Shown: piece after piece, positions 18,151 through 19,557 of the stretch | Layout: every line of letters starts with the position of its first letter | How positions within the stretch are numbered: the stretch's first letter is position 1 | Source: Myxococcota bacterium | GTDB lineage: Bacteria > Myxococcota_A > Bradymonadia > UBA4248 | Reading direction: 5' to 3' | NCBI GenBank assembly: GCA_045643185.1 | Contig: JAZUKH010000280.1 | Coordinates: forward strand, 1,448-65,447 | DNA: 64,000 nucleotides | Program-made: the position numbers and the translations under genes | The notes under the pieces: model-generated | The model's database searches: none | Seen by the model: only the letters and a program-made list of their open reading frames with translations | Told to the model about the DNA's origin: nothing

Positions 18151-19557
18151 CTATTTGGCGAGTAGCTGTCCGCAGGCGCCACCCACGTTGACGCCACGGG
18201 CTTCTCGAAGCGTGACAAGGCATCCGGCGTCCTGCATGATCTTAATAAACGCCTGGATGCGCTCATTCGTCGGTGCCTGAAACACGAGACGCGGCGTAGG
18301 ATTGTATGGAATCACGTTGATGTTGTGCGGCAAGTCCTTGGCAAACTCGGCCAGACGCCGCGCATCGTCGTCGGAATCGTTGACATCGCGCAACAAAACG
18401 TATTCGAGCAAAACTTTTTCGTGCGAGCGATAAGGCCAGTCGACGAGCGCCTCGTGGATCTGAGCAAGCCCAAAGCGTTTGGTGATGGGCATGAGTTTGG
18501 CACGAACTTCGTCGGTCGTGGCATTGATGCTGATGGCCAGATTGGGACGCACCTTGGCGTTTTTGAGGCGCGGCAGCTCACTCAGCACGCCAGACGTCGA
18601 CAAGGTCATGCGCACCGGCGCAATGTTCAAACCGCACTCGCAAGAAAGCACCTCGATCGCGCGCAGCACGTTGTCGAGGTTCATCAACGCTTCGCCCATG
18701 CCCATGAACACGAGGTTGACCGAGTGCGAACGTTCAGGCCCGTAATTTTTGATCGCCCAAATGACCTGTTGCACGATCTCCCCCGCGGTGAGATTGCGTC
18801 GCAAACCGAGCGTCGCCGTAGCGCAAAACGCGCAGTTCATGGCGCAGCCGACCTGTGACGAGAGGCACAGCGTGACGCGCGGCGACTTGACGTCGCGCGG
18901 CATGTGAATGGTTTCAACCCGAGCGCCGTCTTTCAGCTCGTAAATGATGCGCGTCGTGCCGTCGTCGGCGCTTCGCGTCTCGGCAATGCGCATCGGCGTC
19001 GTGTCAAACGCCGTTTCAATCAGCATGGCAGGCTTGTGACCGATATCGGGCGCGTCGTCGACGTAGGTCCACGGCCTTTGCAGCGCGCGAAACAGGTGTT
19101 CGCCGCCAGCACGCGTGGGCAGTGCCTCCAGATCTTCGGGCAAAGCCGCATAGATCGAGGGATTCTGAGCCAATGCGTTTTGGACGGCTGGCAAAAACTC
19201 ACGATCAGCTTCGGTAAGGTCGAGCTTTTCGGCCTCGTCGATCGTAAACCAACCCACGGCCTGGTGTTCATTGAGCGTCATCTGGTCGGATTCGAGCCAC
19301 ACGCGGTAAAGGTGCACGCGGATCGTGCGATCGGGGTCATGCGTTTCGCGCGTCGTAACGTACTGCGTCGGATAGGCGGTAAGCCCAAGTTCCTCGTGCA
19401 GCTCACGGGCCAGCGCGTCTTCGGGACGTTCACCGGGTTCAATTTTGCCGCCGGGAAACTCCCATTGGCCGCCATGAGACTTTTGAGCACCGCGCTGGGC
19501 GGCAAAAAAACGCCCTCGTCTGAGGATGAGGGCGGCAACGACTTCTATTTCAAGCAT
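18151..19557 (-). CDS. rlmN: fusion protein: N-terminal NUDIX (MutT-like) hydrolase plus C-terminal radical-SAM rRNA/tRNA m2A methyltransferase RlmN
   Basis: NUDIX box '[24 protein letters not shown]'. RlmN motifs '[33 protein letters not shown]' and C-terminal 'GGACGQL'. Confidence 0.85.
   Translation of the reverse strand: [468 protein letters not shown]

Follow-up and report, generated by a model that had tools for sequence, protein, structure and literature searches.

A conserved fusion of a MutT/NudG-class NUDIX domain to the radical-SAM methyltransferase RlmN in a lineage of Bradymonadia

The gene described here is located on the minus strand of a 64,000-nucleotide stretch of DNA from a Myxococcota bacterium (contig JAZUKH010000280.1 of assembly GCA_045643185.1, positions 1,448 to 65,447), which is referred to below as the window. 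In the open reading frame (ORF) listing of the window it appears as a single frame at 18151..19557, starting with ATG, devoid of internal stops and closed by the stop codon at 18151-18153, which encodes a protein of 468 residues. The initial annotation had proposed, with no indication of the strand, that this frame joins a NUDIX domain to the N-terminus of the radical S-adenosylmethionine (SAM) methyltransferase RlmN. The listing confirms that the frame is continuous, and Pfam and NCBIfam searches and alignments show a canonical radical-SAM enzyme of the RlmN type, preceded by a NUDIX domain of the MutT class whose catalytic residues are intact. The 64-kb window contains no further sequence resembling either NUDIX or RlmN.

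The NUDIX hydrolase domain, of the MutT/NudG class, covers residues 1-128 (19174..19557, minus strand) and was recognised by matches in Pfam, NCBIfam, PDB and Foldseek searches. Family PF00293 is matched at residues 7-124 with an E value of 1.3e-22 and a score of 80.7 bits, against a cutoff of 21.1. The NUDIX box, which had been called perfect on the basis of a motif now placed at residues 32-59, occupies residues 37-59 (19381..19449, minus strand), and its residues from G37 to L59 do match the pattern GX5EX7REUXEEXGU exactly. Box, fold and Pfam match place the domain within the NUDIX superfamily, and its predicted model superposes on NUDIX structures with root mean square deviations (rmsd) of 1.6-2.6 Å. 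In 35 homologues carrying the same fusion, described below, residues G36, G37, K38, E40, E43, R51, E52, E55 and E56 are invariant, together with E97, H98, W103, A117 and D118 in the rest of the domain; E97-H98, W103 and A117-D118 are the majority residues also in an alignment which includes 56 standalone NUDIX homologues.

The best NCBIfam model for the N-terminus is that of NudG (PRK10546), followed by PRK08999 and MutT. The NudG model scores 109.6 bits, below its equivalog cutoff of 156, and the cutoffs of the MutT equivalogs are likewise missed (PRK10776, 75.3 against 148; TIGR00586, 64.4 against 97.9), as are those of the RppH models PRK00714.x (28-33 bits against 116-259) and of NudC (PRK00241, 20.2 bits against 158). 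Among PDB sequences, the best match is Escherichia coli Orf135/NudG (2rrk, E value 4e-23), collinear over 123 residues, followed by the RppH of Bdellovibrio bacteriovorus (BdRppH; 3ees, 3e-19) and by Mycobacterium smegmatis MutT2 (5zrc, 1e-18), while MutT (1mut) is a far weaker match (4.7e-11), aligned at residues 5-89 only. Structural comparison by Foldseek, with template modelling (TM) scores of 0.83-0.89, normalised on the target, against NUDIX structures, ranks BdRppH first (TM 0.89, rmsd 1.6 Å), then Orf135 and then MutT2. The closest standalone NUDIX homologues are at most 45 % identical, single-domain proteins of about 130-140 residues, named in their sources as (deoxy)nucleoside triphosphate pyrophosphohydrolase, 8-oxo-dGTP diphosphatase or MutT.

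A further indication comes from Asp118 (19204..19206, minus strand), at the base-recognition position of the domain and part of the A117-D118 pair, invariant in the fusion family. This residue aligns with the aspartate of 'LAPAD' in NudG and of 'VPAD' in M. smegmatis MutT2, while BdRppH has an asparagine; in MutT the corresponding residue is Asn119. The description of the domain as MutT-like is thus correct as to the class, but both Asp118 and the scores put it nearer to NudG/Orf135 than to MutT proper.

Each of these relatives shares only part of its features with the fused domain. NudG is both the best curated model and the best solved sequence relative: the alignment shown is gapless over 123 residues, at about 41 % identity, and WEF-GGK, the NUDIX box, EH..W and the 'AD' motif are common to both; however, NudG is a standalone protein and, at 109.6 bits against 156, is not an orthologue of the NUDIX half by the NCBI criterion. 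MutT (PRK10776/TIGR00586; PDB 1mut, 3a6t) belongs to the same subclass and has the same full catalytic set, but differs by the asparagine at the base-recognition position. The numbering of the fused domain is presumably that of MutT minus one. The catalytic base of MutT is reported to be Glu53 (PMC9173781), which corresponds to E52 in the fusion. BdRppH (3ees, 3ffu), the closest structural neighbour, is 36 % identical, standalone, and lacks the aspartate which is invariant in the fusion family. Judged by its sequence, the NUDIX half is an ordinary member of the MutT/NudG class, whose orthology to NudG is not established by score.

The model PRK08999, a 'Nudix family hydrolase' of 315 positions, deserves a separate mention. 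Residues 3-141 of the fusion match its positions 5-139 with 104.8 bits, against a cutoff of 245. Its C-terminal partner domain is presumably thiamine-phosphate-synthase-like; if so, PRK08999 is an earlier case in which a MutT-class domain is attached to the N-terminus of an unrelated partner resembling an enzyme.

The remainder of the protein consists of a junction followed by the divergent N-terminal helical domain of RlmN (residues 129-195; 18973..19173, minus strand), collinear with standalone RlmN, and of the RlmN radical-SAM core with its C-terminal extension (residues 196-468; 18154..18972, minus strand), identified by TIGR00048 and PDB matches. The Pfam Radical_SAM family is matched at residues 234-399 (E value 4.9e-12) and the NCBIfam RlmN model TIGR00048 at residues 166-467 (1.4e-85, 287.4 bits); among PDB sequences, the best values are 1.5e-59 for 6fz6 and 5.9e-57 for E. 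coli RlmN 3rf9. The two motifs on which the RlmN assignment had originally been based are both present, CAMNCAFC at residues 238-245 and GGACGQL at residues 459-465. The former is the CX3CX2C motif of the [4Fe-4S] cluster (18823..18846, minus strand, reading TGC GCC ATG AAC TGC GCG TTT TGC); its cysteines C238, C242 and C245 align with those of 'CALECKFC' in E. coli RlmN, numbered there C125, C129 and C132. The latter contains Cys462 (18172..18174, minus strand), aligned with 'AACGQL' and equivalent to Cys355, the methyl-carrying cysteine of the E. coli enzyme. The resolving cysteine, Cys118 in E. coli, corresponds to Cys231 (18865..18867, minus strand), whose column contains alanine in the C118A RlmN chain 4pl1 and cysteine in the wild-type 3rf9. 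All five cysteines (C231, C238, C242, C245 and C462) are invariant in the 35 fusion homologues.

Since the TIGR00048 match starts at position 46 of the profile, the NUDIX domain was suspected of having replaced the N-terminal domain of RlmN. This was rejected: residues 133-468 align with residues 18-352 of a standalone RlmN of 355 residues (P0055) at 50 % identity and with one gap, and in the Foldseek comparison with crystal structures of RlmN, 341-360 residues long, the alignments comprise 346-351 columns, with TM scores, normalised on the target, of 0.80-0.85. The N-terminal accessory domain typical of RlmN is therefore present, residues 133-195 being collinear with standalone N-termini, and the NUDIX domain was added ahead of an intact RlmN rather than swapped in. 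The accessory domain is divergent: PF21016 is matched by it neither in the fusion nor in P0264, the nearest standalone relative tested, and on TIGR00048 all members of the subfamily, whether fused or standalone, reach 278-287 bits, just short of 290, because this domain leaves the first 45-75 positions of the model unmatched. The standalone proteins P0055, P0046 and P0264 share with all fusions the N-domain motif 'LP..L..L......HLF.A.QR.WT'.

A different identity, that of Cfr, was considered and discarded, as the Cfr models give about 180-199 bits against cutoffs of 468-550, and the protein is far closer to the RlmN cutoffs. In comparison with known RlmN enzymes (TIGR00048; PDB 3rf9, 5hr7, 6fz6), the fusion is alike over residues 133-468, comprising N-domain, core and C-terminal extension, and keeps the CX3CX2C motif and both mechanistic cysteines; it differs by the divergence of the accessory domain and by the 128 N-terminal residues of the NUDIX domain, which only one cluster of the 150 best matches in the exhaustive search described below possesses. 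By sequence, the RlmN half (residues from about 133 to 468, 336 in all) is a complete member of the RlmN family of radical-SAM methyltransferases.

The same fusion was found in a number of relatives. A search of 5.8 billion proteins returned at least 35 clusters, of 445-514 residues, 54-100 % identical to the fusion at 99-100 % query coverage; PF00293 and PF04055 are both present in each of the 35, and the frame is unbroken throughout their alignment, with a deletion of 39 columns at the junction in one of them (P0032). A scan of one genome per species detected the fusion in 11 genomes (loci L001-L011), all of them metagenome-assembled and labelled as Myxococcota, Myxococcales, Bradymonadales or 'Proteobacteria'; at least three derive from ruminant digestive tracts (roe deer omasum, goat omasum and buffalo rectum). 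A twelfth fusion locus (L085), 87 % identical, comes from a sequencing-run assembly. The frameshift or stop between the two domains that would have undone the original proposal is not observed, the frame being equally open in 12 independent assemblies and in the 35 clusters. The fusion is a real, conserved gene of a small Bradymonadia (Myxococcota) group, and chance is by far insufficient to account for it.

One family member is suspicious. P0038, from a 5.7-kb ENA metagenome contig, is a 348-residue 'standalone' RlmN lacking the NUDIX domain; from about residue 115 on it is close to the fused family, notably to P0014 and P0015, while its N-terminal part, which contains PF21016, is typical of RlmN from another lineage. 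The protein probably reflects a chimera in the metagenome assembly and not a de-fused relative.

Rarity was evaluated by an exhaustive phmmer search against 1.84 billion representatives clustered at 50 % identity, from which the 150 best matches, down to about 207 bits, were considered. Only one of them (P0035) matches the query from residue 3 to 466, while in the other 149 the match starts no earlier than query residue 122, and those RlmN homologues that are longer contain neither a NUDIX nor any other recognisable domain. RlmN thus does normally stand alone, as had been stated, and no independent NUDIX-RlmN fusion was found among these 150 matches. A neighbour-joining tree built on the RlmN core alone groups the 33 fused proteins in a single clade in all 200 bootstraps, which indicates a single fusion event. 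An origin from genes already adjacent in the ancestor found no support: no NUDIX gene is located near the nearest unfused RlmN loci (L081-L084, L086), and no rlmN near the nearest standalone NUDIX genes (L087, L088).

Both halves are clearly under purifying selection. In the comparison with L085, the proportion of differences at nonsynonymous sites (pN) is 0.12 for the NUDIX domain and 0.06 for the RlmN core, against 0.83 and 0.68 at synonymous sites (pS); synonymous sites being saturated, these values are not expressed as ratios. Pairs of fusions are on average 59 % identical in the NUDIX domain, 47 % in the junction and N-domain and 73 % in the core.

A model of the whole protein was obtained with AlphaFold2, starting from an alignment of 140 sequences which comprised fusions, standalone RlmN and standalone NUDIX homologues. 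The mean predicted local distance difference test (pLDDT) score is 93.0, with block means of 94-98 from residue 101 to 190, while confidence is low in the cluster loop (residues 241-250) and in the C-terminal loop bearing Cys462. The predicted TM score (pTM) of 0.92, for a chain of two domains, implies a confidently predicted, fixed inter-domain orientation, and the model suggests that the NUDIX domain is rigidly packed on the N-terminal domain of RlmN. In the Foldseek comparison with solved structures, no chain was found to span both domains.

The genomic surroundings of the fused gene are variable. In the window, a gene for a 204-residue predicted membrane protein (19588..20202, minus strand), with about four hydrophobic helices as judged by eye and a low-complexity C-terminal tail, is located 30 nt upstream of the fusion. 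This protein has no Pfam or NCBIfam match; homologues immediately precede the fusion, in the same orientation, in L002-L006 and L008-L010, no match was found in L007 or L011, and in L085 its position is taken by a 236-residue gene without hits. The gene is probably co-transcribed with the fusion, while remaining outside the fusion itself, and its product may be an operon partner of NUDIX-RlmN. Further upstream, on the same minus strand, are genes for an RNase HI domain protein (20260-20994; PF00075 at residues 109-237, E value 2e-23), with an N-terminal extension of about 105 residues that matches no family, and for a 597-residue Ser/Thr protein kinase (21101-22894; Pkinase at residues 11-242). 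The kinase has a long low-complexity middle region with a repeated '...EDEDPPPVFHSQKTKFL... / ...DEEPPPVFHEQKTKFL...' segment and, by eye, a C-terminal hydrophobic helix.

On the other side, a plus-strand ORF of 499 residues (16645-18144) converges on the fusion gene. No match to it was found in Pfam, in NCBIfam or among PDB sequences. It is kept next to the fusion, at 26-40 % identity, in L001-L006, L008 and L010, and is a clade-specific protein with no assigned function; a slight resemblance of its C-terminus to the FGGY-type sugar-kinase fold was noticed by eye only. It is preceded by the gene for a 723-residue cysteine-rich predicted lipoprotein (14470-16641, plus strand), with a '...LGCSDD' lipobox-like N-terminus and many repeated modules containing C-x-x-C, which match no family; this gene too is kept upstream of the 499-residue ORF in most related loci. 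Elsewhere in the window, two tandem tRNA-Pro(GGG) genes are found on the plus strand, at 48573-48646 and 48669-48742, 22 nt apart.

The order of genes on the fusion strand is Ser/Thr kinase, RNase HI, small membrane protein and NUDIX-RlmN both in the window and in L085. Most of the loci L002-L010 feature instead the Cys-rich lipoprotein, the 499-residue ORF, the membrane protein and NUDIX-RlmN, all co-directional, so that in the window the pair formed by membrane protein and fusion is inverted relative to lipoprotein and 499-residue ORF; in L001 the membrane-protein gene alone is inverted and placed downstream. In L011, the most divergent fusion locus, the fusion is preceded, at 18 nt, by a glutaminyl-tRNA synthetase gene and followed, on the opposite strand, by folK. 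Taken together, these varying orders show that the fused gene is a stable unit, while its neighbours are not. The L011 synthetase was recognised by eye from the translation of an ORF of about 560 residues (4282-5964, plus strand), the fusion being located at 5983-7422. In E. coli, tRNA-Gln is one of the tRNAs containing 2-methyladenosine (m2A) at position 37; the adjacency may be a coincidence.

From the ORF, its domains and catalytic residues, its conservation, single origin and rarity we infer that the product is, on balance, probably a bifunctional polypeptide, in which two active sites work independently and which is kept for the sake of co-expression or stability. By homology, the C-terminal 336 residues would methylate adenosine at C2, using the [4Fe-4S] cluster, two SAM molecules and the Cys231/Cys462 pair, with A2503 of 23S rRNA and A37 of some tRNAs as predicted targets. 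The N-terminal 128 residues would act as a MutT/NudG-class pyrophosphohydrolase on substrates of the nucleoside triphosphate type, likely oxidised or modified (deoxy)nucleoside triphosphates ((d)NTPs), CTP/dCTP and possibly (p)ppGpp. The known substrate of MutT is 8-oxo-(d)GTP. NudG is active on CTP, 5-methyl-dCTP and 2-OH-dATP (PMC5158307) and, like MutT, also breaks down (p)ppGpp to pGp, in vivo as well as in vitro (PMC5845004). A single fusion, in an ancestor of one Bradymonadia lineage, put the NUDIX domain ahead of an intact RlmN, and selection has kept the arrangement; the benefit would consist in co-expression, fixed stoichiometry or stabilisation through a packed interface, and not in substrate channelling. 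Independence of the two sites appears most probable because no feature distinguishes the NUDIX domain and no wider genomic association between NUDIX and RlmN was found.

Some observations weigh against this interpretation. The score on TIGR00048 falls narrowly short of the equivalog cutoff (287.4 against 290 bits) and, the N-terminal domain of the RlmN half being divergent and without a PF21016 match, its choice of RNA targets could differ from that of E. coli RlmN. Similarly, no curated NUDIX equivalog model is passed, so that the exact predicted substrates of the NUDIX half are not fixed by these scores. Finally, an interface as fixed as the one predicted exceeds the needs of simple tethering and may reflect an interplay between the domains, functional or structural.

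Such an interplay is the core of the best surviving alternative, in which the fusion forms a functional unit and the NUDIX activity is tied to the chemistry or to the niche of RlmN. A NudG-like domain, docked rigidly on the RNA-binding N-terminal domain of RlmN, would either police nucleotides linked to the chemistry of RlmN, or couple the turnover of alarmones or oxidised nucleotides to m2A. Three versions can be imagined: destruction of C2-modified adenine nucleotides, such as 2-methyl-ATP from the decay of m2A-containing RNA, or 2-hydroxy-adenine nucleotides, in order to prevent their re-incorporation; local degradation of (p)ppGpp during ribosome assembly; or removal of oxidised NTPs in step with the oxidant-sensitive cluster of RlmN. 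In favour are the C2 substitution of 2-OH-dATP and the methylation of 5-methyl-dCTP, both accepted by NudG, the nearest characterised relative (PMC5158307), the conversion of (p)ppGpp to pGp by MutT and NudG (PMC5845004), and the report of RlmN as a direct sensor of reactive oxygen species (ROS) in Enterococcus faecalis (PMC10336011). Retention of the fusion by selection and the rigid arrangement of the model point in the same direction, and a parallel link between rRNA modification and a NUDIX enzyme has been noted in the rluE-nudJ operon of E. coli (PMC3384335). The proposal is, however, inferential throughout: nothing in the sequence of the NUDIX domain separates it from standalone NudG/MutT-like enzymes, the related unfused loci examined show no adjacency of NUDIX and rlmN genes, and the fusion is limited to one narrow clade. 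We therefore regard this coupling, in any of its versions, as unlikely, and the functional unit that it implies as correspondingly doubtful.

Less probable still is a role in the processing of RNA ends, in which the NUDIX domain would strip a 5' pyrophosphate or a cap-like group from the RNA that RlmN methylates. BdRppH is the best structural match of the domain and its second-best PDB sequence match, and only this close structural neighbourhood makes removal of 5' pyrophosphate from RNA possible; the NUDIX domain is moreover physically joined to an RNA-binding enzyme, and gives in Pfam a weak match to decapping enzymes of the Nudt16 type (22 bits, where the cutoff is 27). On the other hand, the RppH and NudC models remain at 28-33 bits against 116-259 and at 20 against 158, respectively, the latter value leaving the earlier suggestion of activity on NAD caps without support, and residue 118 is the aspartate of NudG and MutT2, not the asparagine of BdRppH. 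In addition, neither substrate of RlmN has an evident 5' triphosphate close to the methylated base: A2503 is about 2.5 kb away from the 5' end of 23S rRNA, and the 5' ends of mature tRNAs are monophosphates made by RNase P.

It is more improbable again that the NUDIX domain is non-catalytic and provides an extra module for RNA or nucleotide binding, or for regulation, like the NUDIX-like C-terminal domain of MutY. A match to NUDIX_4 (PF14815, E value 6e-15), a family presumably built around the MutY-type domain, and the predicted rigid packing onto the RNA-binding N-terminal domain of RlmN would agree with such a role, but the alignment with active enzymes runs from end to end, and the invariance of E97 and of the metal-binding and catalytic residues of the box in 35 homologues would be unexpected in a structural module. 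The last alternative, an artefact in which a frameshift, a chimeric assembly or a mis-called start merges two neighbouring genes, is ruled out for practical purposes by the same stop-free architecture in the window, in L001-L011 and in L085, obtained from different samples and assemblers, by the end-to-end alignment of 35 clusters, by a G+C content that is even over the junction (58 % and 59 %) and by pLDDT block means near 98 at the modelled junction.

Each half, taken alone, belongs to a well-known family; their combination is an undescribed, clade-restricted, selected domain architecture. In the literature searched, no description was found of a fusion between NUDIX and RlmN, or between Nudix/MutT and radical-SAM domains, and radical-SAM or methyltransferase partners are not mentioned in a review devoted to the Nudix clan. 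Current names reflect one half only: NCBI lists these proteins as 'NUDIX domain-containing protein' (MBO5753744.1, MBQ9818142.1, MGI5830129.1, MFA5624080.1), and IMG as '23S rRNA (adenine2503-C2)-methyltransferase'. The absence of the RlmN name may be due to the divergent N-terminal domain, which drops the subfamily under the TIGR00048 cutoff, and automated annotation may under-call RlmN in the lineages of this subfamily. Surveys relying on NCBI names could accordingly score these Bradymonadia as lacking RlmN.

RlmN is near-universal and normally single-domain, and matters for translational fidelity and antibiotic susceptibility. It has also been linked to oxidant sensing (PMC10336011). In this perspective, the fusion is a 'Rosetta-stone' hint that nucleotide-pool sanitation, or the turnover of alarmones or modified nucleotides, may be tied to m2A in at least one lineage, and it offers a ready-made protein for the biochemical study of a link between sanitation and m2A. 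Should the two halves be independent, the fusion would be a modest curiosity of domain architecture. Should they form a functional unit, it would be a first case of a writer enzyme with a built-in module for cleaning up the modified nucleotide or, alternatively, would tie (p)ppGpp/ROS signalling directly to an enzyme of RNA modification.

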